Positions 9,301 through 64,000 are shown, counted from the first letter of the stretch. The stretch is 64,000 bases of DNA from a virus (IMGVR_UViG_3300042946_000615:7663-71662), one strand, 5' to 3'. A program made the numbers and translations. Notes: a model not told the origin generated them from the letters alone.

Positions 9301-12300
9301 GGCTCGGTATTATTGGCCATCCACTGCTTCATTATTGTTGGTCCAAGAGCCGTTGCGGCAAGAGTCCATCTATTTACATAGTCGTTAGCGTCTTGAATCG
9401 GACCCATAGAAGATGCGAATCGGTTCATTAATCCTGTTACACGAGCATTAGCATCTTCTATTGCTGCTTCTTGAGCAGCATTGGGGTCTGCTGCTGAATC
9501 TGCTTTTTTAGTTTTTGATTTACCTTTACGCTCTTCATATAATGATCTTAATTTTGTATATTCTGATTCTTCCTCAGGAGTTCTTCCTTTTGATCCCTTG
9601 AGCCATAGTTGTTTTCTTCTGTTGTCTTCTGTGCGAGATTGTGCTGCTGCAACTTGTGTAGAAGCTTTGGCTCCAACAGCAGTTGATTGTGGAGTAGAGG
9701 GTTCTTTTTCTTGTGCTGGATCTAGTCCTAGCCTTTCTCTTCTGTATTGGTCCTGTCTTTGATATATGTATCTATTATTTTCATTAAGTCTTGCTTGTCT
9801 TTCGGTAATTTTTTTAGCCTTACTTGCTTCAATTGGATTCTCTTTGGTCCATTTTTGCCTTAGTGACTGATATTCTTCTTCTTCGCCTTGTGTTCGTTTG
9901 GCTTTTCCTTTCATATTTAAATTCATCCTTCTTATAGACTCTTGCTTTCGTCTAATTTCAGGATTTAAAACTCTTTGCTCTTCTCTGAGATTTTGATATT
10001 CTATTTCTTCTTCTGGAGTTCTTTTGGCTTTTCCTTTAATATTTAAATTCAGTCTTCTAAAACTATTTTTTTGTTGTCTGATTTCTTCTGCTCTCAATGT
10101 ATCAGATTTTAATTGTGATGATAGTATTTCGTTATAATTTTTATATTCGCTTTCCTCTGAGAATGTTCTCTTATCTGCTTTGTTTTTAAGTTGATCGTAC
10201 CTCTTATTATGAAATGTTCCTGCTTTATTTAACAAACGAAGTAATTTAGCTCTATTCTGTACTTTGTTTCCATATTCTAAAAATTCATTTATATCTATCG
10301 CTTTATCTTTATTTAAATCAAAATCAGAAAAATAGTCCAAAAATTCATTTTCAGATAATATACTATTTTGATCTTTATCAAATCCTCTAAATAACGATGC
10401 TAATCCACCATCTTTAAAATATTTAACTTTGCCACCATTAGCATATCCATTATTAATAGCTTCTAATAGTGGTAAATTTTGGGCTGTAGATTTAGCATTG
10501 ATAACAAACTCTCCCGGACTAAGCATTGCTGGTATAGTATCAGTTCCCTTTGGTTTAAAGTCTATCATCTGTCCTTCAGCGGCATATATTAAGCCTCCAC
10601 GACTAGCCGTAATAGCAGCCTGATTCTGATACTGTTCGCCAAGATCAGTAGTCCCAAGATTAAGTTGAATTGTTTTTGCTCCAGAACTATCTCTTCCTTC
10701 TATTGTGTCATTTCTTGAAAAAGAGTCTGCTAATTGATTTTTTAGGTCAATTATTGCTACAGTAAGATTATCCATAGCGAACACATTAAGTTCCATGGCC
10801 TGAACTTCTCTTAACTTAGCTTGTTCCTCTGTTGCTGCTTTCTGTAAGCCAGCAGCTTCTAGTACCTGATTAGCCGCGGCTTGAGCCATTGGTTCAGACT
10901 CAGGGTTCATCTTTGTTTGGATGGCTTGCATAACAACAGGATTATTTGCAAAGCCACTCTCAATGGCCATTTGTTGCATCATTTTGCCTTCTTGCTGTCT
11001 AAACATATTGTCTAGATCAGCTTCGCTAAGTAATCCTTGTCCAGCAGTTGCTCGTTGATTTTGTATTTGACCCTTGATTATTGCCTTAAACCCAGGATCT
11101 TGCATCAAGCCTAGAGTTTCTTTTCTTTGATTAGCTAGAACAGTATTTCCTGCTCTATATGCTTCTCTCATGCTTCCTGTTTTAAATAGTGCTTCATTAA
11201 ATGCTTTTCTTGCATCTCTTTGATTCCATGGACTATTTAATCCACCAGATAAATTTCGCTGAAGTCTAATAAATGCTTGATTTAAATTGTCTGCTTCTTC
11301 TGGAGTATTTGTTAATAATTTCTCAACAAAAGACTGTCTATCTTTTTGTGTTTCAGCAACATTCTTAGCTTCTTGTAAAGCTCTCTCATACATATTAGTA
11401 CTATTAGCTAATTTATCTAAAGCATCATTATAGTTTTTGATCTTGTCGCTACTGTCTTGTATGTCTTGAGTAAATTGTATAACATCATTAAAGTCTTTAT
11501 TTAGTAATGCGTCATCTCTTTGTTTTACAAGTCCGGTGTTGGGATCATTTATACGATCTGATTCTTGTCTTATCGCTTGGGCAATAGCAACAGGATCGGT
11601 TATTCCTCCTGTCATTTGTGCAACTTCATTTAGAGTTTGACCCTTTGCTTCATTATAGCTTTCTCCAACATCTCTAAAGATTTCTCTAGTATCAATATTC
11701 GCTTTATACATGATTTTATCAGCTTTGCGACGAAGCTCGGTTGATTGTCTAATATAGTCTGAGCTTTGTTGTAAAGACTTTGCAAAATCATTAAGACCAT
11801 TTTGTCTAAACTCAAGCATTGCTTTTGCAGCGTCTGTTGCTTTGCGAGCTAGTCCCTCGCCAAGTGCGGATGAAGACGTTCTGATCTGATCCAAGAATAT
11901 TTCTAATGCTACTTTGCGATTATTAGCTAATCCCTCGTCGCTAATTTTTTCAGATGCATTTTTTACGTATGCTTCTAGCTGACTATTTAATTTTTCTTTG
12001 GTTTCATTATCTAGACCAGAAGAATTGATAATACCCTGTCCAACAGATAAAGCCTGGGCCGAAGCGTCCTCTTTAGTTAATGATGCTTCTGTACTAAGAC
12101 GATCAGCTATCGCTTTGGTCATAACATCTGGCAAAGATTTACTAAAATTAATCATACTTTCAATATTTTTGCCTTCTTTTCCTCCTATTAAATCGGCGGC
12201 TTTGCCAACAGCCAATGCAAAATCTTGTGGGGTATATGCCTGAGGATTTTCTAAAATATTAAGTTCTGGTATATTTATTTCTGGAGGGCCAGATTCACCA

Positions 12301-51307: not shown

Positions 51308-53494
51308 TTAGTTATCTATTTCGTTATACACCATAGAATAAAAAGAGGCTTTAGCTTGCTTAGTTTCATCAACAGAAAGTTCTCTGCCTAAATCTGACTG
51401 TAGAGCTTTTAGCCATAAATAATAGTTATTAAGATAAGGACTGGTTGTTGATGCTATAAGATTTATAGTATTATCTTCACTTAGCGCTGAAAATGGACTA
51501 ATTGATAATAGCACATTTGTTTTTATGCTTTCTAGTTTTTCAGATTCTATATTACTTAAGCTTCTTAGATTTTTCTTATTAAAAAACTCTAACACTATAG
51601 GATTAATTATTTCACTAATTTTATCCTGTGCTCCTGATGCCCACATGGATAATTTGGCGCCAGTCTGAGGAGAAAACTTTTTAGTCTTTCTTTTTTCTGT
51701 ATCTTTGGACAACTTCGGGCGACCTTCTCCGGACTGCTTAGGCAATGAAGAAGTTTTTGGAGAACCATTACCTCCAACTGGCACTCCTGGAGTTTTCATT
51801 TCTAATGCGGGTTTTTCCCCACCCTTTTTCTTGTCTAGTTCTAAACCAACCTGACTTGGGGCAACTACTCCTGTTTGTAATGCTATTTTCTTTAATGAAT
51901 TCTCAAACTGAGGATCAAACCACGGACCAGATTTAGCAACCATTCTATTACTATCTCTTTCTCGACTCTCTCTATTAAGTCTTGTTTTCTCCATATCAGG
52001 ATCAAATCCAAATTTAGTTTGTAATAACTCATCACTAATAAGATTACGATCAGCCAACTGAACCAATAAAGCTTTTTCACTATCTTCGTTGCTTAAATCC
52101 ATTTTATCAAATTCTAATTTAGCAGGGTACTTGAAACCCATTGCTTTCTGAACAAGAGCAATTTCTTCTTCCCAAAATTCTATTAATCTGTCTCGACCAT
52201 ATTGAAGTCTTTGAGTAAGGGTCTTTAAGCTAATGAAATTATTTGTTGTTCCTGCTGCACCAAATGTTCCTGTTAATGTAGGAGGAATACCTAATCCTGC
52301 ATATATTGCATTAAGGTGGGGAATATATTTGCCTTCTCCCAAGAAATTATGAACATTGGTATTGCTTTCCATTAATTCTATATCTGGCCCCCAAATCAAA
52401 TCCATGGTTCCTCCGCCAACATTATTACCAAGGATCTGGGCAAGTTTGGATGTGGCTGCTTTGGTTGGAGCAATTTTATGCTCTAAGCTACCTAATTTAA
52501 AAATTCTAATATTACTAATAGCACCGTCAAGAGCTGCCATGTCAGCTAATTTAAGCTTCTCAACAACTGTAATATCGTCCATGATAGCATAGATCATAGG
52601 ATATGCCCATGCTTGCCAATCGTCTTTTTTATAATGAAATACTAGTGTCTTATCGTAATCAAGAGGATATGGTTTCTTGTTTTTAGCAGCTTCTATGATT
52701 TGTGCAGGTAGGTTCTCGATAACTCTCTTTTCGTTTTCTGTTTTGGGATTATTAATAACCTTGCGTAATGAGGCTGGTAAAATTAATTCGTATGTTTTAT
52801 TGTTTAAGAATGATGATAATGCACCAGCAGATACCTCAACGCAAACAGGATCTATAAAAGTATATTTCCATGGGATTTCTCTTTTTTCAACACTAATTTC
52901 TGGAAGTTCATTCAGCTGCATGTCTGCTGTTCCAAGGGCTTTATATAATTTATCAGCAACTTTTATGCTTATCTTTGCTGTTCGTCTGTCTATAACTATG
53001 TTGCCGCTTTTATATAGATTATTAAGAAATCTTTCGCTACGATCTTTGCCATTTATCTTCTTAAACCATCTTCTATAAAATCTTTCTATTCTTTTATTTC
53101 TATGAACTAAACGGATACCCTGACTAGCAAAATCGCCCATAAGATCTATTACGTTTTTTACTAATCCCACCCTTTGATAAATTCGCTCTGCTCTTTGTAA
53201 GATCATTTTGATCTCATTAGGAGGAGCCTCTTGTGGTCTAAATGTATAGTAATCGTCTTTTGTTAATCCTGGGCGACTTCCAGTAAGACCATCTAAACTA
53301 GAAAAATCAAGACTATATCTTCTTCCTCCTGCGGTTGCCTTTTCTACCAGAGTAAATTCGTCTAGTGATGCCCCAGCAGTTTTTAAAGCTTCTTGTTTAC
53401 TTAATAAATCATCACCCCATGTTACATAAGCTTCTGGTGGTGCAGTGTTAGATGTGCCTAAAACTTCCTCTTTTGTTCTTTTTTTATTGGCCAT
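51308..53494 (-). CDS. Portal protein
   Basis: 728 aa between TerL and protease; LV.NVID.M.DF, I.AGLGIP..L and LIS...L....G.D.D.E portal-like features. Confidence 0.8.
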   Translation of the reverse strand: MANKKRTKEEVLGTSNTAPPEAYVTWGDDLLSKQEALKTAGASLDEFTLVEKATAGGRRYSLDFSSLDGLTGSRPGLTKDDYYTFRPQEAPPNEIKMILQRAERIYQRVGLVKNVIDLMGDFASQGIRLVHRNKRIERFYRRWFKKINGKDRSERFLNNLYKSGNIVIDRRTAKISIKVADKLYKALGTADMQLNELPEISVEKREIPWKYTFIDPVCVEVSAGALSSFLNNKTYELILPASLRKVINNPKTENEKRVIENLPAQIIEAAKNKKPYPLDYDKTLVFHYKKDDWQAWAYPMIYAIMDDITVVEKLKLADMAALDGAISNIRIFKLGSLEHKIAPTKAATSKLAQILGNNVGGGTMDLIWGPDIELMESNTNVHNFLGEGKYIPHLNAIYAGLGIPPTLTGTFGAAGTTNNFISLKTLTQRLQYGRDRLIEFWEEEIALVQKAMGFKYPAKLEFDKMDLSNEDSEKALLVQLADRNLISDELLQTKFGFDPDMEKTRLNRESRERDSNRMVAKSGPWFDPQFENSLKKIALQTGVVAPSQVGLELDKKKGGEKPALEMKTPGVPVGGNGSPKTSSLPKQSGEGRPKLSKDTEKRKTKKFSPQTGAKLSMWASGAQDKISEIINPIVLEFFNKKNLRSLSNIESEKLESIKTNVLLSISPFSALSEDNTINLIASTTSPYLNNYYLWLKALQSDLGRELSVDETKQAKASFYSMVYNEIDN

Positions 53495-53551: not shown

Positions 53552-55576
53552 TTATCTATAAATTCCTGTATATACGTCATCATTTGCTCCGTTAACAAAC
53601 CATTCTGGTCCTCTGTACATATTGCCATTGTTTTTAACCGAGTCTTTAGCGTTGGCTCCTATTATATCATAATCAATAGGTTTTAGGCTTTTATTAAGTT
53701 GTCTTGCTAACATATTGGCAATAATTAAAGAACTATAGCGGTCCTTTCGTAATCTTCCTTTTCTTCCTTGTCCTAGTTTAGTTTCTGGTGTGTCCCAGCG
53801 ATCTCTAGCGTTCGGTCCTTGACTAGTTTGTGTCATGACTATGGTGGTAAGCTCATTTTTTAATTCTTCAATTTCTAATATGCATTCGCTAACACTATCG
53901 TATAATGGATTTAAATCTGTTTCCAATATGCTTTTGCCTTCTCTTTCTATAGCTAGTCCTAGAGTTAAGTTGTCAAACGCAGGAAATAATAAAGCCTTAT
54001 CTTCTAAATCTTTTCGCAACCCGTGATTGGCTTGACTTGTCCATTCAGCTTTTGCAAACTGTATTAATTCTAAAACATGCAATCCTGGTTGATCATCCGT
54101 GTCTTTACTTTTATCTTCAATTGTTGGCCAAATTAATATTTCTCCTTCCTCCAGCTTATTTGGATCGTGCAGCGATTCTTCAATAGCCACACCACCTCCT
54201 TGAGCGTCCATCCCTATTTTAATGGGCTTAAACGTTTTCATCAAATTTCTAATTTTACGAGCACAGAAACCATAGAAATCATGTTCCGTTATGAGTCCGG
54301 TTTTTTGGCGCTCTTTAAAATTAGCTCTATTAGTAGTCCAGCAATACACGATCTTGGAATGCGTCGGATTAACTTCCAATACAACTATACTAAAATTATC
54401 TTGCTCACTAGCAGGATCGATACCATATACATATTCTTTATTAGGGTCTCCTTTTGTTATGGCGTCGAACATTACTGGTTTTCCATCTATGATTATTTGG
54501 GTGTTGGACACCACGCAACTTTCTATTAAACTTCGTCTAAAAAATCCCTCACTATCTTTTACGAAACATGCAGCATATTCCATATTGTATATACCGCTAT
54601 GTATTGTAGCTTTAGCTCTACTAACTTGTTTATCATCCATGAATCCTTTTGGAATAAGCTCATAAGGAATTCGAATAATACTATAATCTTTCCAGTTAAA
54701 GCTATCAGGAACTTCTCCTTTGAATATGTCTTCAAGTTTTCTTTTGTCCCCTTTGCTTTCTATGATAGCCTTATATCTTTTCCAATAACTAGCAAAGTGT
54801 TTAAAGTCATAGTCTGCTGTGCCACTAATTATAGCTTGATTTCCCATTTTAGTATTTAGCACTTCTAGCTCTTCATTCCATATTCCTGCTTCTATCATTG
54901 CGTTCTTTTTAGCTTCTTCTTTAACATTTTGAATAGGACTAGCAGATACCGCAGCGAATCCGGAAACTACTGTTTCGTATATATCTGGTGATATGGATGC
55001 AAATTCGTCAGCAATAATAATATGTGCTCTCAAACCTCTAATCTTGCTTCCGTCGCCCATAGGGATAGCAATCGTCCAACTGTCACCTAGTCTTATAGTG
55101 CATCTGTCTACGTCTCTTCGCGGACCATCGTCGTTACCATTAAAGATACTTCTTAATATCGGACTACTACGCCAAATGGTTTCCATATATTCGAAAATAA
55201 TTTTACTTTGACGAAACGCGGCGCCTACTACAACTATTTTTGTTCCTGGACAAAATGTACATTTGATAATACAATACAAAGCCATTAAGAACGATTTACC
55301 CCAGCCACGACTAGCGATATACATTGGAAATGGTCTTATCCAAAATTCTTGTAATATTAAAATTTGCATAGGATGCAATTCAATATTGAATAAAAGCTTC
55401 ACCATACTACCAATATACTTTGGATCTTTTAAAACTTTCATCAGATGAAGATCAGGCAGTTCAATATCTCTTTCTGATCTATTGATCATCACATTTTTAT
55501 TGATTTTAAGTTGACTTACGTCGCCCAGACCTAGCCAAGCGTCATCAAAAGATATCTTATTTAACGATTCAGCCAT
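53552..55576 (-). CDS. terL: Terminase large subunit
   Basis: Walker A ASRGWGKS, Walker B IIIADEF, IRG.RA, MEY.A.F, RNase H-like YGIDPA...D, KDRYSS. Confidence 0.92.
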   Translation of the reverse strand: MAESLNKISFDDAWLGLGDVSQLKINKNVMINRSERDIELPDLHLMKVLKDPKYIGSMVKLLFNIELHPMQILILQEFWIRPFPMYIASRGWGKSFLMALYCIIKCTFCPGTKIVVVGAAFRQSKIIFEYMETIWRSSPILRSIFNGNDDGPRRDVDRCTIRLGDSWTIAIPMGDGSKIRGLRAHIIIADEFASISPDIYETVVSGFAAVSASPIQNVKEEAKKNAMIEAGIWNEELEVLNTKMGNQAIISGTADYDFKHFASYWKRYKAIIESKGDKRKLEDIFKGEVPDSFNWKDYSIIRIPYELIPKGFMDDKQVSRAKATIHSGIYNMEYAACFVKDSEGFFRRSLIESCVVSNTQIIIDGKPVMFDAITKGDPNKEYVYGIDPASEQDNFSIVVLEVNPTHSKIVYCWTTNRANFKERQKTGLITEHDFYGFCARKIRNLMKTFKPIKIGMDAQGGGVAIEESLHDPNKLEEGEILIWPTIEDKSKDTDDQPGLHVLELIQFAKAEWTSQANHGLRKDLEDKALLFPAFDNLTLGLAIEREGKSILETDLNPLYDSVSECILEIEELKNELTTIVMTQTSQGPNARDRWDTPETKLGQGRKGRLRKDRYSSLIIANMLARQLNKSLKPIDYDIIGANAKDSVKNNGNMYRGPEWFVNGANDDVYTGIYR

Positions 55577-56057
55577 CTGATTTTTTAACCATTTCTATAT
55601 AATGTATTTTCTTAAAGATAAATTCAGCTATCTTTTCAGCATTAGACGCGCTACCGCAAAATATAACTTTAATATTATGATTTAGTTGTAGCTCTAAAAT
55701 ATTCTTAATAAGAAAGGAAGGAGTAATCTTAACTTTATCCCACATTCTTTTAGGAACAGTACTTCCTTCTGGATATATTAATAGATCTTCGAGATTAAAT
55801 TCTAATAATAAAAATGAATATTTAAATTGGCTCAATCGCATCACAACATCTTTGAATCGACTCTCGACAATGTTAGTTGCAAATTCGCTAGAGCTTTTCT
55901 TTCTCTCAATAGTTAATATGTGCTCTAAGCCCTCAATACTATAGTCCCCGGTATCTAACTTTTTATGAGCCTTGGTATAGTCGTTAAAATTCCACGGCTG
56001 TTGTTCTCTGGTATCTATTATTATGGTAAAGTTATTATAGGTATTATTATTTGTCAT
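55569..56057 (-). CDS. ERCC4/XPF-family nuclease
   Basis: IIDTREQ.P, L.TGDYSI, IERK motifs. Confidence 0.85.
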   Translation of the reverse strand: MTNNNTYNNFTIIIDTREQQPWNFNDYTKAHKKLDTGDYSIEGLEHILTIERKKSSSEFATNIVESRFKDVVMRLSQFKYSFLLLEFNLEDLLIYPEGSTVPKRMWDKVKITPSFLIKNILELQLNHNIKVIFCGSASNAEKIAEFIFKKIHYIEMVKKSDG

Positions 56058-57313: not shown

Positions 57314-58130
57314 TGTTATTAACACTCTCTGAGTTTAAAAATGGTTTGTCTACTGTGCCGTCCTGATAATTATGATAATCATAAAGTTTCTGCTTAACCT
57401 TACTGGTAGCCATGCTAAGAATTTCCATTTCTCGTCCTTCTTTTTCTCTTATTTCTTCGTCTTCTAGCATTCGTATTAATCCTGTCCAACTGCTTTTGCC
57501 GTCTTCTATTCTTTTGATTCGTTGTTCTCTTGTGGCTTTAAGGTCTTTACTAATTTTTTGTTGTTCATTGAGCAGTTTGGTATATTCATTGGTATAATTT
57601 GCTATACTGTTTCGGGCAAAGCTGAGTTGAGTTTCTAAATTGGCTAATTTCGGTATGTCTCTTTCAACTTCTGGCTTGCTATAAATTTCGTCCACCATTC
57701 GCTGAAGTTTTTCAGTTTCAGCAATATGACGTTTTCGTTCTTTCATGCTTCGATTAATAAGAATATCTATAGTGATAAACTGTTTGATCTGCAGTTCTTC
57801 AGCGGGCAACACGTCTTCTCGAAACTGCTTTACCAGATTAATCCATGTGCTTTCAAAGTATTCTAATTCTCCGGTGTCACTATCAAATTGTCGTGTGATT
57901 TCTGGCCAAAACGTTTTACTATGAAGTTTTTGACTAAGTATCTGATTATCATTACTGCTGTTAATAACTGATAATTGATTTTCGTTAACATATCGCTGTA
58001 TTGGGCCGACAGTTCGATTTAAATGATTTGCTATTTCTTGTAAAGAGGATGAAGTATAATTATCTCGAATGTATTTTTCTTCATCAAGACTTAATTGTCC
58101 TCGTTTTTTGGGTACATCTCTGCTTTCCAA
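57306..58130 (-). CDS. HTH plus coiled-coil protein, candidate terminase small subunit
   Basis: N-terminal EIANHLNRT...IQRY HTH and long coiled coil; upstream of TerL. Function inferred from position. Confidence 0.45.
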   Translation of the reverse strand: MESRDVPKKRGQLSLDEEKYIRDNYTSSSLQEIANHLNRTVGPIQRYVNENQLSVINSSNDNQILSQKLHSKTFWPEITRQFDSDTGELEYFESTWINLVKQFREDVLPAEELQIKQFITIDILINRSMKERKRHIAETEKLQRMVDEIYSKPEVERDIPKLANLETQLSFARNSIANYTNEYTKLLNEQQKISKDLKATREQRIKRIEDGKSSWTGLIRMLEDEEIREKEGREMEILSMATSKVKQKLYDYHNYQDGTVDKPFLNSESVNNNE

Positions 58131-58753
58131 TTTTTGCTCTCCATTATTTTAACAATGTGGTTTTTTAGTTTTTTGAGTTCTATCTTGTTAACTTTTGATC
58201 CGTGTTTCAGTTTGAGATAAGTTTCTCTAAATTCTAATTGAATATGATCGTCTAAAAATTTAATTAGCTCTTTATTTTCTAATAAGTTTTCAGTATGTGA
58301 TGATGGTGCAAGATGAGATGATTGGTCGATATATCCTGGTTGAATAATGTTCTTTTTGGCCTCATTTCTTTTTGCCCACGAGGCGTATAGTTCACAGTCA
58401 TCTTTATTGGAAAATTTTTCACATTGATTAATGCTAACTTTGCAACCTTTGTCGAAAAAAGGACAAGAATGACAGGGTTTATCGGGCCTTTGATAGTTGT
58501 TTCTTTTATAATTAAATAGTCTATTACGAACGTGGGTCCAAAGGAAGTTTTCTAAGGGTCTTTTTTTGTCATAATTTTTAAGACCTTCCAATGCAAAAAT
58601 AGCAGCTTGTTGCTTCATATCGTCTATACTATGATATGCGAATCTGAATTTATTGGCTAATCTTTTACTAATATTGTCTAATACTAATAAAAACTCTTCT
58701 GTACTAACGCCATTGGGTAATTCAGGTGGTAGTTTGGTCTTTTTTTTGCTCAT
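58091..58753 (-). CDS. Phage sigma70-family factor with Cys-rich insertion (probable late sigma)
   Basis: Region 2-like DDMKQQAAIFALEGLKNYDKKRPLENFLWTHVRNRLFNYKR, then CHSC...C....C......C. Confidence 0.75.
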   Translation of the reverse strand: MSKKKTKLPPELPNGVSTEEFLLVLDNISKRLANKFRFAYHSIDDMKQQAAIFALEGLKNYDKKRPLENFLWTHVRNRLFNYKRNNYQRPDKPCHSCPFFDKGCKVSINQCEKFSNKDDCELYASWAKRNEAKKNIIQPGYIDQSSHLAPSSHTENLLENKELIKFLDDHIQLEFRETYLKLKHGSKVNKIELKKLKNHIVKIMESKNWKAEMYPKNEDN

Positions 58754-58886
58754 TTATTAGTTCTGCTATGCTCTTTCCGTTGTCTAATAATAGGTCATTA
58801 ATAATATCGTCATTAATAGAGCCAGAGGCTTTAACGAATAATACGCTATCAGCAACAATGTCCGGGTCAAAATGGGAGTCTTTCAT
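58722..58886 (-). CDS. Small hypothetical protein
   Basis: MKDSHFDP..., AAGGA RBS; first gene of the late operon. Confidence 0.5.
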   Translation of the reverse strand: MKDSHFDPDIVADSVLFVKASGSINDDIINDLLLDNGKSIAELINEQKKDQTTT

Positions 58887-58973
58887 ATTTTTTCCTTGCT
58901 CTAAACTGATCAAACCTTATTATAGTATGTTTTGGGGCGAGATTGTCAACAAATTAAAAGATAGGAGCGATTT

Positions 58974-59210
58974 ATGGCTAATTATAAGAAGTGGACCAAT
59001 GCTGAGCTAGACTATATTAATAATAATCATACTCTGTTATGTGACGAAGGATTGGCAGCCTCATTAAGTAAAATGACTGGCGAAACTATTAGCACAGCAA
59101 TGGTACGACGCCAGCGAAGAAAGCTAGCTTTGAAGAAGAGCAGGGGCCGTCCAAAGAAGATTAAGGAAATTAATAGCTCAAGGGATACTGAAGCTACTGC
59201 TATAAGTTGA
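58974..59210 (+). CDS. Small DNA-binding protein (HTH-like plus AT-hook)
   Basis: KKWT.AE..YI...; MVRRQRRKL.L; KKSRGRPKK AT-hook; GGAG RBS; divergent from the late operon. Confidence 0.7.
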   Translation: MANYKKWTNAELDYINNNHTLLCDEGLAASLSKMTGETISTAMVRRQRRKLALKKSRGRPKKIKEINSSRDTEATAIS

Positions 59211-59348
59211 AATTTAGCAGATAAATAATTAAGAGGGCGGGACAGCGGTCACGATTAATAATTTTAGTCGTGGCCGTTGTTGTTTTATGGGGATTGGCCG
59301 TTATAATAGAGTGATGCAAGGTCAAAATACTTTCTAGGAGACTAGGTC

Positions 59349-59645
59349 ATGAAAATGTTTATTTTATTAGTTTGTGGTTTATTTTGTGGTGTTGGAAATG
59401 ATAGCAATGCTTGTGAATGGACCAGGGCAAGAAATGTTCAGCCAGTTTATGTTCCTGTTCAGCAAGTTCAACCAGCCATATCGTGGTCTTATGTTCAACA
59501 AACATTTGTTAATTATGTTCCAACAGTAGTTTATCAGCCAGTAGTAAATACTCAGGTAATTGCTATTCCGTCAGTGGTTTATCCTATTTATGCTCCTGTT
59601 CCTGTTGTTCCTTATTTCTATGGATATAGTGTTTATAGATACTAG
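59349..59645 (+). CDS. Secreted/membrane Val-Pro-Tyr-rich protein
   Basis: Signal-peptide-like N-terminus, low-complexity VPV/Y body, GGAG RBS. Confidence 0.65.
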   Translation: MKMFILLVCGLFCGVGNDSNACEWTRARNVQPVYVPVQQVQPAISWSYVQQTFVNYVPTVVYQPVVNTQVIAIPSVVYPIYAPVPVVPYFYGYSVYRY

Positions 59646-59926
59646 GGGGAATTCGGCTAATATAAGTGGTGCAGAATAAGATTTAATTAATGGGGGAACT
59701 GGCCAATTGTAATATGTCCGGCCAATTATTTTTTAGAACAGGTGTCTATGGAAACATTATTGATACTTGTATCAGTATAAAAATTATTTGTGAAAGATTA
59801 TTATGGGAAAAATGGCTAATAAACTGGCCAATTACGTATGGTGGTCCTTATTGTTTTTAGACCACCCGCAAGGTATGGCGATTTTCTAAGCCCCTTAATA
59901 TAAAATGAAAAAACCCCCTCTTGCCC

Positions 59927-60004
59927 TAAAGTGTTGTGGCGTAAGACTTTACGACGAGTGATGGACGCAAAAGTTGTCATAAACTCTTATGGGGTAACGA
60001 CTTA
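59927..60004. repeat. Paired 9-7-9 dyad element 1
   Basis: TAAAGTGTT-GTGGCGT-AAGACTTTA and, 53 bp later, TAAACTCTT-ATGGGGT-AACGACTTA. Confidence 0.85.
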
Positions 60005-60047
60005 GAAAAAACGTAAAAGCATTTGCATAAATCGAAAGTTTTTCCGC

Positions 60048-60083
60048 TTGAAACCTAAAGATTGGCCTGTATAATACCGATAT
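60048..60083 (+). promoter_or_regulatory. Early promoter (sigma70, with overlapping sigma28-like boxes)
   Basis: TTGAAA-16-TATAAT; TAAAGATT-12-ACCGATAT. Confidence 0.75.
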
Positions 60084-60107
60084 AAGAGAAAGAAAGAGAG
60101 AAAGAAA

Positions 60108-60329
60108 ATGGAAAAAGCAACTCATATCAACGATTTTATTGGTAGCCTTCCTAGGATTGTGGAAAAGAAGGTGTGGAAGGTTACGGATAAGGATGGAACG
60201 GTTGTTCAGTATGTTGGCGCTACCGATAACCGTGAGAGCACAGCACAAGCGTACATCAAAGAGAAGTATCCCCAAAGAGATTTGATTCTGACCTTCTCAC
60301 ACTTCAAAGGTTTGATTACCCTTCGCTAG
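60108..60329 (+). CDS. Early hypothetical protein
   Basis: 73 aa after a promoter and purine-rich leader. Confidence 0.7.
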   Translation: MEKATHINDFIGSLPRIVEKKVWKVTDKDGTVVQYVGATDNRESTAQAYIKEKYPQRDLILTFSHFKGLITLR

Positions 60330-60335
60330 AGGGGA

Positions 60336-60363
60336 TTGACAAGCAAAAAAGTTTCTGTAGAAT
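60336..60363 (+). promoter_or_regulatory. sigma70 early promoter
   Basis: TTGACA-16-TAGAAT with TG extension. Confidence 0.7.
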
Positions 60364-60390
60364 AACTTCATCATCACCAAGGAAAACAAA

Positions 60391-60579
60391 ATGAACGATC
60401 TCAAGAGTCTTTTTCTTGCTATGGCCGCTGGTAAGTATGCTGGATTCCGAGATACTAAGGGTAAGGGATATATCGGAATCATCAACGGTATCATGCGTGA
60501 GGATGGTAGTGGTCGTAACTGGATCATTACTGTGACTGAGGGAATCAAAACGAGCAAGGTTTTTATCCACGCAACGTAA
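60391..60579 (+). CDS. Early hypothetical protein
   Basis: 62 aa, AAGGA RBS, REDGSGRNW motif. Confidence 0.7.
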   Translation: MNDLKSLFLAMAAGKYAGFRDTKGKGYIGIINGIMREDGSGRNWIITVTEGIKTSKVFIHAT

Positions 60580-60654
60580 GCCCAATAATCACAAGACTTT
60601 ACGTCGAGTGGGGGCATAGAGGGATGATCTAAACTCTTGTCGCATAACGACTTA
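60577..60654. repeat. Paired 9-7-9 dyad element 2
   Basis: TAAGCCCAA-TAATCAC-AAGACTTTA; +53 TAAACTCTT-GTCGCAT-AACGACTTA. Confidence 0.8.
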
Positions 60655-60687
60655 CGAACCTTGCGATCTTTTAAGGAAACTTTTTGC

Positions 60688-60715
60688 TTGATCTCTAAGA
60701 AATACCCTGTATAAT
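60688..60715 (+). promoter_or_regulatory. sigma70 early promoter
   Basis: TTGATC-16-TATAAT with TG extension. Confidence 0.7.
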
Positions 60716-60742
60716 GATGATATAAGAGAAAAGGAGAAAAAG

Positions 60743-60958
60743 ATGGATACGACTAAGATCAACAACGCTCTGAAAATGATTTGGGGTAGCGAAACGTACA
60801 ACGTGGTGCTACTGTATACGGCAGACGGTAAACTGTTTGCAGAATGTGAAGCAACGAATGACCGACGACGAATCACGGAAAGCAACTACGAAGAAATGCT
60901 GAACGATATGTTCTATAACTTCTGTATGGAAAAGGCCTCTTGGATGGGCGTCTCATGA
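60743..60958 (+). CDS. Early hypothetical protein
   Basis: 71 aa, AAGGAG RBS. Confidence 0.72.
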   Translation: MDTTKINNALKMIWGSETYNVVLLYTADGKLFAECEATNDRRRITESNYEEMLNDMFYNFCMEKASWMGVS

Positions 60959-60973
60959 CCCCCACTAGAGGGG

Positions 60974-61002
60974 TTGACAAGATAAAAAACTTTCTGTAAA
61001 AT
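60974..61002 (+). promoter_or_regulatory. sigma70 early promoter
   Basis: TTGACA-17-TAAAAT; flanks resemble those at 60336. Confidence 0.72.
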
Positions 61003-61034
61003 ACGTTCATCACCAAGAGAAGAGGAAAAAGAAA

Positions 61035-61367
61035 ATGGCTACCAAGTTCAAGATTATCGAAGATGCCAAGCGTCAGGTTCGCATGTGCTTTGTTGGTATG
61101 GCTACTCGGCATCAGCCGTCGCTTGCCGATGGATTGTATGGCCCGATTCACAGTGAAAAGATTCACAAGTTCAATCGCAAGGCTCTCCGCAAGGGTAGTA
61201 AGGCTAAGGCGGAAAAGGTTGACTCTCGCTACAATGGGGGAGAGGATACCATGATCGTGGCGGTTGGCAAGCCCGGTTCGGCTGAGCGTAAGGCGGCACT
61301 GGCAGACCAGTATGCTGCGATTATGGCATCGGGCGAGGAACTTTCCCCCTTCGGTTGGAGGGGTTGA
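61035..61367 (+). CDS. Early basic hypothetical protein
   Basis: 110 aa, GAGG RBS, Lys/Arg-rich. Confidence 0.7.
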   Translation: MATKFKIIEDAKRQVRMCFVGMATRHQPSLADGLYGPIHSEKIHKFNRKALRKGSKAKAEKVDSRYNGGEDTMIVAVGKPGSAERKAALADQYAAIMASGEELSPFGWRG

Positions 61368-61369
61368 CC

Positions 61370-61447
61370 TAAAGCCTTACCGCATAAGACTTTGCGACGA
61401 GGCCCGCCGCCCGCGTTTTTCGTAAACTCTTACGCCACAACACCTTG
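61370..61447. repeat. Paired 9-7-9 dyad element 3
   Basis: TAAAGCCTT-ACCGCAT-AAGACTTTG; +53 TAAACTCTT-ACGCCAC-AACACCTTG. Confidence 0.85.
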
Positions 61448-61490
61448 TGAATCTTACGGCATTGTAAGGAAAAATATTCACGACTACCCC

Positions 61491-61518
61491 TTGCATTGGC
61501 CGATAATATCTGTATAAT
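61491..61518 (+). promoter_or_regulatory. Early promoter (sigma70 with internal GCCGATAA)
   Basis: TTGCAT-16-TATAAT; GCCGATAA at 61499-61506. Confidence 0.7.
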
Positions 61519-61524
61519 CGTGGC

Positions 61525-61731
61525 ATGATGATCACCACCACCAACGAGGACGCCAAAATGCTCCACGACCTTGACGAACCAAACAGCCAACTGAGTTACC
61601 TTGCCGAGCAGGGTATCATCGAGCCGATGGTCGAGCCGATTGACGATCCTAGTTTGGAAGTGAACTACTGGGATTGGGCAGAAGTGATCGGTATTGTTGA
61701 CAATCTGGTTCCGGAGGAGTATGCTGTATGA
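61525..61731 (+). CDS. Early acidic hypothetical protein (possibly leaderless)
   Basis: 68 aa; ATG 6 nt after the -10 box, no RBS. Confidence 0.6.
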   Translation: MMITTTNEDAKMLHDLDEPNSQLSYLAEQGIIEPMVEPIDDPSLEVNYWDWAEVIGIVDNLVPEEYAV

Positions 61732-61795
61732 GTGCCTTACTGATCGTGGTTTCATACATTGGATTGTGTTTTTGTGTTCTTTGTAAGGATTAGTT

Positions 61796-62080
61796 ATGAG
61801 TCACCCTGACCCTTGTTTCGATCCCGATAACTCTTATGAGGATGATGATATGAACTACCATGATGACGATGTGAACTACGATGATCACAATGATTTTTGG
61901 GGTTTGCCAGAAAATGAGCTGGATGAAATCCGAGATCAAATGGATGATGATGAGGGTTATGATGACGATTACGATGACCATTACGATGACAGCATGGATG
62001 GCGATCACGACTCCGCGATGGAATCTGCCGGATGGGGAACAGATGAGGATTACGGCTATTTTGGCGGAGAAGACTACTAG
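61796..62080 (+). CDS. Extremely acidic early protein
   Basis: 94 aa, Asp-rich, ends in MDGDHDSAMESAGWGTDEDYG. Confidence 0.72.
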   Translation: MSHPDPCFDPDNSYEDDDMNYHDDDVNYDDHNDFWGLPENELDEIRDQMDDDEGYDDDYDDHYDDSMDGDHDSAMESAGWGTDEDYGYFGGEDY

Positions 62081-62083
62081 CCC

Positions 62084-62161
62084 TAAAGCCTTGCCGCATA
62101 ACACTTTGCGGCGAGGCGGGCCGCACGATCTTGACGTAAACTCTTTAGGCTCAACGACTTA
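62084..62161. repeat. Paired 9-7-9 dyad element 4
   Basis: TAAAGCCTT-GCCGCAT-AACACTTTG; +53 TAAACTCTT-TAGGCTC-AACGACTTA. Confidence 0.85.
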
Positions 62162-62190
62162 GAGCAACCGTAGAATCTTTTATTTTCTTG

Positions 62191-62227
62191 TTGACAGCCT
62201 AAAGAACGGGCTGTATAATGTCGATAT
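62191..62227 (+). promoter_or_regulatory. Early promoter (consensus sigma70 plus sigma28-like)
   Basis: TTGACA-17-TATAAT; TAAAGAAC-12-GTCGATAT. Confidence 0.85.
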
Positions 62228-62254
62228 AAGAACATCACCCCAAAGGAAAAGAAC

Positions 62255-62566
62255 ATGACTCACGCCGAAGCAGTTTCTATGGTTCGTGGCAAGCGGAATA
62301 AGGATAGCCGCAAGGTAGGAAACAACACCTACGCTGAAATCCTGCCGTGTGGATCGGTTGGTATTCTGCTCCACAGTACCTATGTGGTAAAGATTCATTC
62401 TGACAATACCTATACCCTCCAGACTGGGGGTTGGCAAACCAGTACCACCAAGGATAGAATCAACCAGTACAGCCCCGTTCGTGTGTACCAGCACAAGTAC
62501 GAATGGTTCGTGAAACTGAATGGTAAGGAATATCCGTTTATGGAAGGAATGGTGGTGGGAGGATGA
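62255..62566 (+). CDS. Early hypothetical phage protein
   Basis: 103 aa, AAGGA RBS; LH.T...L.TGGWQT.TTK.RIN motif. Confidence 0.75.
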   Translation: MTHAEAVSMVRGKRNKDSRKVGNNTYAEILPCGSVGILLHSTYVVKIHSDNTYTLQTGGWQTSTTKDRINQYSPVRVYQHKYEWFVKLNGKEYPFMEGMVVGG

Positions 62567-62910
62567 TTTTATATCTTGCCGGTTTATATGGTGTTATTCT
62601 GCTAAATGCTTTTCTGTGTTGGATGATTGAAAAAAACAACTAAACGAAAGGGCTACGGATGGCCGATATATATCTAGACTGGAATAGTTTCGGTGTGGGA
62701 CTTGTTATTGGCCTTGGTTGTGCTTGGTTTGTTTGTGATCTTGTTTTTCCATTAAGGAAGTAAGATGACTATTAAGGATAAGATTGTCCTGTCTGTGGCG
62801 TTTGTTTGTGGTTGTATCGCAACTTTTCTTATGGGGTAAAAAATGTTTTCTGGAATCCCTATGATTGTTGAAGTTTTAAAGAAAATGAACGACTCTAAGG
62901 CCAAGTGATC

Positions 62911-62988
62911 TAAAGCCTTGATGCGTAAGAGTTTACGCCAAGGCCCAGCGGCCGCATTTGACGCAAACTATTGAGACACAACAACTTA
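62911..62988. repeat. Paired 9-7-9 dyad element 5
   Basis: TAAAGCCTT-GATGCGT-AAGAGTTTA; +53 CAAACTATT-GAGACAC-AACAACTTA. Confidence 0.8.
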
Positions 62989-63008
62989 CGATTTTCAAAA
63001 AAATATGC

Positions 63009-63045
63009 TTGACTTCTAAAGTTTAGGCTGGTAGAATACCGATAT
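63009..63045 (+). promoter_or_regulatory. Early promoter (sigma70 plus sigma28-like)
   Basis: TTGACT-17-TAGAAT; TAAAGTTT-13-ACCGATAT. Confidence 0.75.
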
Positions 63046-63076
63046 AAGAAGAAAGAGAAAGAGAAGGAGAAAAGAG

Positions 63077-63238
63077 ATGAGCCACTCTGATTCGCTGTGC
63101 GATTACGAAGATTCTGACGATGGCTATGATGCTGTGAAAGATAACTACCTGACTAATGGTGGTTATGGGTACAATGATCGTACTCGTCGTGAAGATGCTG
63201 AATGGGCTGAGGAATGTCGCCGTAACAACTGGAAATAA
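63077..63238 (+). CDS. Early acidic hypothetical protein (53 aa)
   Basis: AAGGAG RBS; MSHSDSLCDYEDSDDGYDAVKD...NNWK; below the ORF-track size cutoff. Confidence 0.65.
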   Translation: MSHSDSLCDYEDSDDGYDAVKDNYLTNGGYGYNDRTRREDAEWAEECRRNNWK

Positions 63239-63239
63239 C

Positions 63240-63482
63240 ATGATTACACTTCAGGAAATGAGACTCGCTGCTGCTGATGCTCTTGGAACCATGTCTCATG
63301 CTGTTATCGACAATGGTAACGAGTTTCTTATTGTTACCCTCGACAACTGTAGCATGGGAGAATGTGGTACGTTTTTTGCTGATGATGTTCGCAAGATATC
63401 TATCAGGAAGGACAGTAGCCGTGGTGCTGCTGGTAACCGTATTGAGGATTGGGCTGCTGATATCTTGAATCCGTATGCTTGA
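63240..63482 (+). CDS. Early hypothetical protein
   Basis: MITLQEMR...; starts 1 nt after the previous stop (the track ORF extends further upstream). Confidence 0.65.
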   Translation: MITLQEMRLAAADALGTMSHAVIDNGNEFLIVTLDNCSMGECGTFFADDVRKISIRKDSSRGAAGNRIEDWAADILNPYA

Positions 63483-63507
63483 CAATGTTTGATTAGTATG
63501 ATAGAAT
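63479..63507 (+). promoter_or_regulatory. sigma70 early promoter
   Basis: TTGACA-17-TAGAAT. Confidence 0.7.
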
Positions 63508-63523
63508 ACAACCAAAGGAGAAA

Positions 63524-63763
63524 GTGAAAATGACGAAGTGTGTTGTGACGGTTACTGATACGTTTGGTGGTGAGGCTAACTATGGTTGGGTGAAACGGTA
63601 TGAGTTTCAGCCGCGTAATGCTGAGTCTCAACGTAGTGTTATTCGACAGGCCAAGTCTCTGGCGAATATGACTGCGGTAAAGGCTGATACTTACGACTAT
63701 GGTGATGGATATACCGTGAAGCCGCGAGGATACAACCAGATTATCTTTGTGGATTTTGAATGA
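63524..63763 (+). CDS. Early hypothetical phage protein
   Basis: 79 aa, AAGGAG RBS, TDTFGGEANY.WV.R motif. Confidence 0.75.
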   Translation: MKMTKCVVTVTDTFGGEANYGWVKRYEFQPRNAESQRSVIRQAKSLANMTAVKADTYDYGDGYTVKPRGYNQIIFVDFE

Positions 63764-63767
63764 GCCA

Positions 63768-63845
63768 TAAACCCTTGCTGCATAAGACTTTGCAGCATGG
63801 GTGGCCGCCCGCGTTTTTCTCAAAGTGTTGTGGCGTAAGGACTTA
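63768..63845. repeat. Paired 9-7-9 dyad element 6
   Basis: TAAACCCTT-GCTGCAT-AAGACTTTG; +53 CAAAGTGTT-GTGGCGT-AAGGACTTA. Confidence 0.85.
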
Positions 63846-63861
63846 CGGCAAAAAGATTTCT

Positions 63862-63902
63862 TCAAGGTTACCACTTGACAATGCCGATAATAGATGTATA
63901 CT
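63862..63902 (+). promoter_or_regulatory. Early promoter (sigma70 with internal GCCGATAA)
   Basis: TTGACA-16-TATACT; TCAAGGTT-13-GCCGATAA. Confidence 0.75.
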
Positions 63903-64000
63903 GGGGCTATCTGGTTTGGTTGGTCTTCACTACACGAAAGGGATTTTTATGAACGATGTTCTTCTTTTTGGTTCGATTGCTACGGTTGTTGTTTGCTGCC

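Follow-up and report, generated by a model that had tools for sequence, protein, structure and literature searches.

A rigid 90-bp four-site module heads promoter-gene cassettes in a group of uncultured phages and is helically phased to their promoters

The viral record IMGVR_UViG_3300042946_000615 is 71,662 bp long and rated about 48% complete. The stretch analysed here, referred to as the window, comprises its bases 7663-71662 (64,000 nucleotides). Large minus-strand genes with about 35% GC fill window positions 1-58753, and small plus-strand genes follow from 58974 on. Within this second block, an initial annotation had described six pairs of inverted-arm boxes between positions 59927 and 63845, each pair heading a cassette made of a promoter and a gene. 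Here we describe the element to which these boxes belong, its distribution among related phages, and what it probably does. Since the end of the window is also the end of the contig, the array of cassettes is truncated on the right.

Across the 64 kb of the window, the consensus YAA-N4-TT-N7-AA-N4-TTR is matched exactly 12 times, compared to 1.88 +/- 1.39 expected from 100 dinucleotide shuffles, none of which reached 12. Eleven of the twelve boxes originally listed are among these matches, all on the plus strand. The box at 60577 is off-consensus because its first arm has no TT; it is nonetheless in register with the other boxes on alignment. The twelfth consensus match, at 45955, is unrelated to the boxes. 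The spacing reported for the boxes was borne out: the offset within a pair is 53 bp in all six pairs, and the stretch separating box 2 from the -35 element, given as 20-45 bp, measures 43, 33, 43, 29, 20, and 29 bp. Five pairs had been said to begin at or just after a stop codon, and pairs 2-6 do have one, either 0-5 nt before the box or inside it (in pair 2 it is the TAA of the pair's own first box). Pair 1 has no long open reading frame (ORF) directly upstream. The recurrent core GTGGCGT was found at 59936 and 63830, with its reverse complement at 61432, and only two of the 12 window cores are identical. One part of the description needs to be changed. The boxes do act as paired sites heading cassettes in the layout of the region, but they are not free-standing elements; alignment of the six regions places them inside a longer repeat of about 180 bp that begins with a unit and continues through an AT-rich spacer and a -35/-10 promoter to a conserved start region.

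To describe the unit across relatives, we used two motif scans of a viral collection, yielding 128 loci, and a profile built from the six window units, framed in 90 columns. The only profile matches in the window are those six units. In the wider set, the profile matches 298 non-overlapping places in 58 of the 128 loci, on about 46 contigs by our own tally; 196 distinct 90-mers were found, 176 of them scoring at least 35 bits. All of the 150 best distinct copies align over the 90 columns without a gap (MAFFT), and therefore not only the 53-bp offset but the whole geometry of the unit is fixed. Four YAA-N4-TTR elements lie at columns 6-15, 21-30, 59-68, and 74-83. Read as a consensus, they are a single 9-mer in alternating orientation, each box being a 9-7-9 dyad. 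Among the 176 copies, all four sites keep their AA and TT dinucleotides with little or no variation, and the base preceding AA is mostly T. The 7-bp cores are the least conserved columns, with 0.03-0.26 bits at the most variable positions. The unit as a whole is also a dyad, centred on a conserved CG at columns 44-45 in a GC-rich centre; consistent with this, the profile matches its own reverse strand with an E-value of about 1e-8. For 96 of 180 units, the first base of the upstream ORF's stop codon falls within columns -4 to 6, and a promoter, a leader, and an ATG come after each unit. Coordinates for the window are given in Table 1. It should also be noted that in four divergent relatives (L111, L054, L122, and L061) the AA-N4-TT frame is kept with the inner four bases changed, and tandem GTAGCAAAA-type motifs lie downstream in place of the sigma70 promoter.

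Units belong to a single block of small same-strand genes, of which the window shows the first six only. Two relatives rated 100% complete (175,133 and 158,798 bp) contain 15 and 17 matches to a strict four-site pattern, confined to about 13.5 and 17.4 kb, respectively, with no match to a control pattern read backwards. The profile counts 16 and 19 units in the same genomes, the remaining 140 kb or more of which contain none. Close to one in ten units is oriented opposite to the genes (21 of 220 in 22 regions, a redundant count). Outside these phages, a scan for the inner site pair in one genome from each of 185,579 prokaryote species gave 24 matches, about the number expected by chance according to our own estimate. 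None of the 24 passes the unit profile (best E-value 0.062), so the scan provides no prophage, host clue, or host counterpart. In most unit-bearing contigs, as in the record studied here, no more than a few kb separate the array from one end of the contig. It is likely that the repeats, or heterogeneity of the cassettes, break assemblies of these phages in the array region.

The position of the unit relative to the promoter is restricted to particular distances. A downstream promoter matching at least 10 of 12 consensus positions was found for 152 of 185 distinct units with flanks, and most of the remaining units have a promoter with a weaker -35 element, a type that is represented in the window by unit 3 and recurs in relatives. 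The spacers between units and promoters are AT-rich. The gap between the last site and the -10 element is 41-44 bp in 38 copies, 51-56 bp in 79, 62-65 bp in nine, and 83-84 bp in nine, covering 135 of the 152 copies, and gaps of 45-50, 57-61, or 66-82 bp do not occur at all. For 42 spacer families, a Rayleigh analysis peaks at 10.5 bp (R 0.74), a value reached by none of 5000 uniform nulls. In 14 inverted units, the promoter lies at the mirrored spacing of 42-44 or 54 bp. That the distance from unit to -10 element changes in increments of about 10.5 bp points to a protein that is bound to double-stranded DNA and acts on the promoter. Phased sites for a regulator had been one of the options offered in the initial annotation, and this option fits the quantised distances.

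Two other classes of sequence were seen near cassette heads. A second, shorter class of head is present in the window at 60326-60376, 60965-61015, and 63479-63507, where a CCCC...GGGG stem at the end of a gene runs directly into a TTGACA promoter; the first two of these are 75% alike. In addition, 261 kb of early blocks contain 21 occurrences of the sigma54-type promoter consensus TGGCAY-N5-TTGCW, compared to about 0.5 expected by our own estimate. These copies, many of which are orthologous, lie mostly 5-13 nt past the end of a unit, on either strand. They are found in relatives such as the G002 region (L135/L136), L022, L035, and L006, and none is in the window.

Table 1. Positions of the units, their promoters, and other genes discussed in the text (window coordinates; units are framed in 90 columns, and the gap is measured from the last site to the -10 element).
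Feature	Position	Strand	Details
Unit 1	59922-60011	+	Boxes 59927-59951 and 59980-60004; nhmmer profile E 1.7e-19; pattern match
Unit 2	60572-60661	+	Boxes 60577-60601 (degenerate first arm) and 60630-60654; profile E 3.1e-18; first-box TAA is the stop of ORF 60391-60579
Unit 3	61365-61454	+	Boxes 61370-61394 and 61423-61447; profile E 1.8e-21; columns 1-3 are the TGA of ORF 61035-61367
Unit 4	62079-62168	+	Boxes 62084-62108 and 62137-62161; profile E 1.3e-22; local stem-loop (11 pairs) at about 62088-62117; RNA fold -33.6 kcal/mol, z -3.95
Unit 5	62906-62995	+	Boxes 62911-62935 and 62964-62988; profile E 5.8e-21
Unit 6	63763-63852	+	Boxes 63768-63792 and 63821-63845; profile E 2.5e-21
Sigma70-type promoter after unit 1	60048-60075	+	11/12; gap 65 bp
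Promoter after unit 2	60688-60715	+	10/12; gap 55 bp
Promoter after unit 3	61491-61518	+	TTGCAT, 16-nt spacer, TATAAT, by eye; gap 65 bp
Promoter after unit 4	62191-62219	+	12/12; gap 52 bp
Promoter after unit 5	63009-63037	+	10/12, with TG; gap 43 bp
Promoter after unit 6	63875-63902	+	11/12; gap 51 bp
Conserved 78-amino-acid protein	58974-59210	+	First plus-strand gene, at the head of the block
Weak sigma-70 region-2 match	58091-58753	-	Adjoins the early block
Terminase gene	53552-55576	-	
Portal gene	51308-53494	-	
Single ORF of 6011 amino acids	3345-21380	-	Phage minor-tail (tape measure) domain at residues 190-382; rest unrecognisable

Folds of single sequences gave either a long hairpin between box 1 and box 2 or local hairpins, on both strands. 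In the 150-copy alignment, the long pairing is present at 68.6% compared to 70.6% in shuffled alignments, a level reached by 500 of 500 shuffles, and pairing of the 9-7-9 arms is present at 70.6% compared to 71.8%. The long hairpin and the arm pairing were both ruled out by these covariation tests. Because neither exceeds the shuffles, the symmetry of the unit reflects conserved sequence and not maintained pairing. A different result was obtained for a local stem-loop that covers box 1 and joins columns 10-20 to columns 29-39. It is paired at 67.9% compared to 63.6%, a level that none of 500 shuffles reaches, with a covariation of 0.204 compared to 0.161 and with slid controls only 39-50% paired. 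One of its pairs, 16-33, occurs as three Watson-Crick types (89 observed, 48 expected). The mean minimum free energy of this stem-loop is -10.3 kcal/mol on the plus strand, -9.0 kcal/mol on the minus strand, and -4.5 kcal/mol when shuffled, and it has no U-run. An intrinsic terminator in the GC-rich centre was also considered and ruled out, as shuffled sequence folds about as well as the centre does (-3.77 vs -3.98 kcal/mol) and only one of the six window units, unit 6, has a terminator-like match in its centre, a weak one at 63798-63811. An Rfam scan of 58500-64000 gave only a chance-level match to a small nucleolar RNA (E-value 0.33).

The cassettes between the units differ among genomes. 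Stretches between units in the 22 regions fall into 72 cassette clusters. A backbone order is shared, and cassettes are inserted, missing, or replaced between genomes; for example, the window reads 29-00-06-24-07, and two relatives read 09-13-00-20-21-12-07 and 09-30-11-00-06-31-03. One region has cassettes 05-04 where others have 04-05. Hence the arrangement of promoter-gene cassettes headed by paired sites was confirmed, and the comparison of gene order among relatives that had been proposed as a check shows an order that is not identical, with insertions, replacements, and one swap between units. The early block behaves like a hyperplastic region.

Individual junctions can be located by comparing units that are alike on one side only. 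Window unit 4 and its counterpart in L022 have unrelated upstream genes and diverged left halves; identity rises from about 38/60 to 57/60 at the centre of the unit, and a second junction lies directly after the -10 element. Unit 5 has a copy in the relative G002 that is identical across 76 pattern-matched bases. Such one-sided likeness was seen in 83 of 17,652 unit pairs, corresponding to 46 distinct ones. Their change-points span columns -8 to 86, with about 21 at the left edge, about 20 inside, and five at the right edge (our own count), and they are not enriched at the 7-bp cores (7 of 46 near cores compared to about seven expected, again by our own count). In the one-sided pairs, the unit keeps its downstream promoter in 19 cases and its upstream gene in five.

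The absence of a recombinase from the window, noted initially, was confirmed, and the search was extended to the whole record and to relatives. Neither the tyrosine recombinase family PF00589 nor the serine recombinase family PF00239 had a match in the window's record, the two complete relatives, or one further fragment, and the control run for PF00589 was positive in 14 of 14 genomes. The Y1 transposase family PF01797 gave a single sub-threshold match (14.5 bits) in the same records. With no recombinase, cores that are the least conserved part of the unit, junctions that do not fall at cores, and arms without covariation, our data do not support the integron-like shuffling by a tyrosine recombinase that had been suggested. 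In two papers on T4-like phages, promoter-early stem-loop (PeSL) cassettes are described as undergoing general recombination at repeated regulatory cassettes (Arbiol et al. 2010, PMC2839356; Comeau et al. 2014, PMC4122927). The cassette mosaicism seen here matches this PeSL-style general recombination and not site-specific exchange.

A candidate for a protein that binds the units is encoded at the head of the block. Homologues of the 78-amino-acid protein are present in all five further unit-bearing records, at 47-57% identity. When 22 regions were searched, 13 had a homologue, and in all 13 it lies 520-810 bp before the first unit. The family comprises 365 clusters in public data, none functionally named, on contigs of up to 232 kb. 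The core of the protein is invariant, as is an RGRP motif resembling an AT-hook, and a structural model has the form of a three-helix bundle (predicted local distance difference test score 81.6). From its sequence and model, this protein, which resembles helix-turn-helix (HTH) proteins, may be regarded as a reasonable candidate binder and nothing more. No HU or IHF gene was found in the phage records, so that either protein would need to be supplied by the host.

Taken together, we consider it probable that the module is a phased array of binding sites for a regulator, joined to a 3' stem-loop and doubling as a patch of homology for cassette swapping. Its anatomy, its conservation, its phasing, and the mosaic structure around it are shown by the data above; that a protein binds it, in which direction this protein regulates, and which protein it is are what we infer. 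The module, which starts at the stop codon of one small gene and lies whole helical turns upstream of the promoter of the next, forms a cassette head together with the AT-rich spacer, promoter, and leader, repeated 15-19 times per block in uncultured phages of 160-230 kb. On duplex DNA, the four sites would be bound by a sequence-specific protein, sites 1 and 3 from one face of the helix and sites 2 and 4 from the other, and the bound protein would set or time the adjacent early promoter. The best candidate for the binder would be the 78-amino-acid HTH-like protein, with a host architectural protein as the alternative. At the 3' end of the upstream message, the left half of the module would fold as a stem-loop, possibly acting as an insulator or stabiliser. 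Since the module is repeated, it would also serve as a homology patch, and general recombination at modules could insert, delete, and replace cassettes as in T4-type PeSLs, with no dedicated recombinase. A bolder version of this proposal is that one small phage protein, the HTH-like one with its possible AT-hook, reads the phased modules before about 17 promoters and so switches on or off the genes for host takeover at once, and that the same module is an exchange seam between co-infecting phages, perhaps via excised circles, making the block a recombinase-free counterpart of the integron. We regard this version as speculative and rather unlikely.

Several observations weigh against the proposal of a phased regulator array. 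The stem-loop is biased toward the plus strand (104 vs 68 units, p-value 4e-6), and this bias and the position after the stop codon would also suit a role mainly at the level of RNA; for its part, the shuffle control for pair counts can be exceeded by related sequences that have no structure. As for the phasing, the spacer families were defined crudely and may be related to one another, the main gap peak at 51-56 bp is broad (6 bp wide), and the mirror distances of inverted units would be expected trivially from inversion in place of a symmetric element. The fold search with the model of the 78-amino-acid protein is led by HTH domains, none of them significant (best E-value 0.94), its AT-hook match is below the Pfam cut-off (E-value 0.035), and its co-occurrence with units may only mirror shared phage ancestry. 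Finally, the label "early" is itself deduced from promoter type and gene content.

Each of the alternative explanations accounts for part of these data. If the unit acted only in RNA, whether by stabilising 3' ends, as a site of processing, or as a terminator between early messages, much as RNase III sites do between the early genes of T7, then its start at or beside a stop codon would be expected, as would a left half that folds with covariation support and plus-strand bias; moreover, unit 6 is weakly terminator-like, and PeSL stem-loops terminate transcription (PMC2839356). We nevertheless judge an RNA-only role unlikely. Five of the six window units have no terminator-like match, the GC-rich centre gains nothing in folding over shuffled sequence, the long hairpin has no covariation, the unit as a whole has no strand bias, and about 10% of units are inverted (the redundant count of 21 in 220). 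In addition, what is conserved is sequence and not pairing, Rfam has no match for it, and phasing to the promoter would be left unexplained. In another alternative, the four sites are bound not by a phage protein but by one of the architectural proteins of the host, such as IHF, HU, or Fis, which would bend the DNA and boost the early promoters. By eye, YAA-N4-TTR includes the IHF consensus core. With the -10 element at its usual place of -12 to -7, the centre of the proximal site falls at about -60.5, -70.5 to -72.5, -81.5, or -101.5, which are positions known from upstream activators. Even so, a host binder seems quite unlikely, as the base before AA is mostly T in the units and IHF prefers C, sites 15-16 bp apart would overlap within an IHF-type footprint, and the scan for the inner site pair in one genome from each of 185,579 prokaryote species turned up no real unit (0 of 24 matches pass the profile).

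The other two alternatives treat the unit as mobile or as a site of mobility. The boxes could be core sites of a tyrosine recombinase, encoded by the phage or resembling XerC/D of the host, with cassettes excised and integrated as in an integron. Inverted 9-7-9 arms are the layout of lambda Int-family core sites, cassette content varies between relatives with units at every boundary, some homology junctions do fall inside units, and one window core occurs in both orientations. This is very unlikely, given that in the four records searched PF00589 and PF00239 are unmatched and PF01797 is sub-threshold only. Furthermore, the cores are the most variable columns, and since just two of the 12 in the window share their sequence, the identical overlap on which strand exchange depends would be missing from most partner sites. 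Change-points occur near cores at the chance level, the others being at the edges or the centre, a folded attC-like form shows no covariation, and a pure recombination site would have no need of helical phasing to a promoter. Selfish palindromic repeats sitting in intergenic gaps with no role for the phage would also explain two inverted modules around a spacer, the position after stop codons, the many copies, and the inverted minority. The families concerned are repetitive extragenic palindromic (REP) sequences, bacterial interspersed mosaic elements (BIMEs), REP doublets forming hairpins (REPINs), and miniature inverted-repeat transposable elements (MITEs). Such repeats would not be expected to stay in one block and be absent from the other 140 kb or more of the complete relatives, nor to have almost always a promoter downstream at a phased distance. 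The rigid length, the four invariant dinucleotide pairs, the lack of a convincing Y1 transposase, and the lack of hairpin covariation between the halves likewise make a selfish origin extremely unlikely.

The remaining content of the window and its relatives places the block in its genome. Neither megablast nor blastn against the GenBank phage collection matched the window, and the best terminase match among cultured phages is 23-26% identical. Judged by sequence, this appears to be a lineage unrelated to the cultured phages in that collection. A literature search returned no description of the motif or of the phage group, the nearest items being the PeSL papers and one paper on a halovirus repeat; of 345 papers that contain one of the 9-mers, the ten listed are on other subjects. 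If the 6011-amino-acid ORF encodes a true tape measure, the tail would be extraordinarily long. The weak sigma-70 region-2 match suggests that later genes may be served by a sigma factor of the phage itself. Beside the terminase gene is one for an ERCC4-type nuclease (55569-56057, minus strand). A search for a T7-type RNA polymerase gave no match, and neither did its control. GC content is 44% from about 59900 (59900-64000), compared to about 35% for the remainder of the record. When ten early proteins were scanned against Pfam and PHROGs, the results were one match to Kyano_Gp96 and the one sub-threshold AT-hook; the former belongs to the protein at 62255-62566 (plus strand), the sole early protein with a family match (PF23790, Kyano_Gp96, a small protein of T4-like cyanophages, E-value 3e-10; PHROG 554). 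In the relative G002, locus L012 has genes for tRNA-Gly (TCC) and tRNA-Lys (TTT) at 5852-5924 and 10042-10115, on the strand of the early genes. The last units of the array have the tRNA-Lys gene between them, and the tRNA-Gly gene is about 3 kb past the far end of the array.

The 78-amino-acid protein, with its 365 clusters, indicates that this phage group is widespread, even though the GenBank phage collection searched has no cultured member. Its early block is a clean example of regulation and genome plasticity built into one repeated module: one rigid element precedes each of about 17 promoters and is the place where a changing complement of ORFan genes is exchanged. If the reading as a regulator array is true, the block offers a defined operator and a candidate protein for an early regulon with a single switch.

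Comparison with known systems gives partial likenesses only. Core sites of the lambda Int family and integron attC sites have inverted arms of about 9 bp flanking a 7-bp spacer and lie at cassette boundaries, and the boxes resemble them in both respects. They differ in that no recombinase gene was found, spacers vary between sites and are not where the junctions fall, covariation of a folded strand is absent, and each cassette has its own promoter. Strong promoters with arrays of upstream activator sites include rrnB P1 (Fis) and lambda pL (IHF), and the class I positions of CRP are a further example. Here too, a consensus sigma70 promoter is preceded by several sites whose distances from it differ by whole helical turns, but none of these systems has the same site sequence, a fixed geometry of 15/38/15 bp, or four sites arranged symmetrically. 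The stoperators found in cluster A mycobacteriophages are single, asymmetric 13-bp sites that are found genome-wide and block elongation. They are similar to the units in being one short site repeated many times in the intergenic gaps of a phage genome, and they are read by one phage regulator, as is proposed for the units, whereas the units have four sites in a fixed module, are tied to promoters, and are limited to one block. The early genes of T7 are separated by RNase III sites, and BIMEs consist of two inverted palindromic units around a centre. With RNase III sites, REP sequences, and BIMEs the units have in common that they are structured repeats directly after coding regions; unlike these, the units have no support for a long hairpin, and they are linked to promoters, phased, and present in one block only.

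The closest likeness is to the PeSLs of T4-type phages. Both have a stem-loop and a strong promoter of the sigma70 type preceded by AT-rich sequence, both are densely repeated among small ORFan genes, and in both, relatives differ by repeat-bounded indels and replacements with crossovers at varied internal points (PMC2839356, PMC4122927). The PeSL stem-loop differs in lying in or beside the promoter and in being built from a G-run and a C-run (PMC2839356, PMC4122927), a form to which the shorter CCCC...GGGG heads in the window are nearer than are the main units. PeSLs are also described from hyperplastic regions of T4-like myoviruses, and the lineage here is distinct, with a tape measure gene. 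Recombination between adjacent PeSL cassettes gives rise to mini-circles. What is additional here is the rigid 90-bp four-site dyad, located 20-60 bp or more upstream of the -35 element with helical phasing. The element is therefore a more elaborate form of the repeated promoter cassette, and if the module also promotes exchange, the PeSL idea extends beyond T4-like phages.

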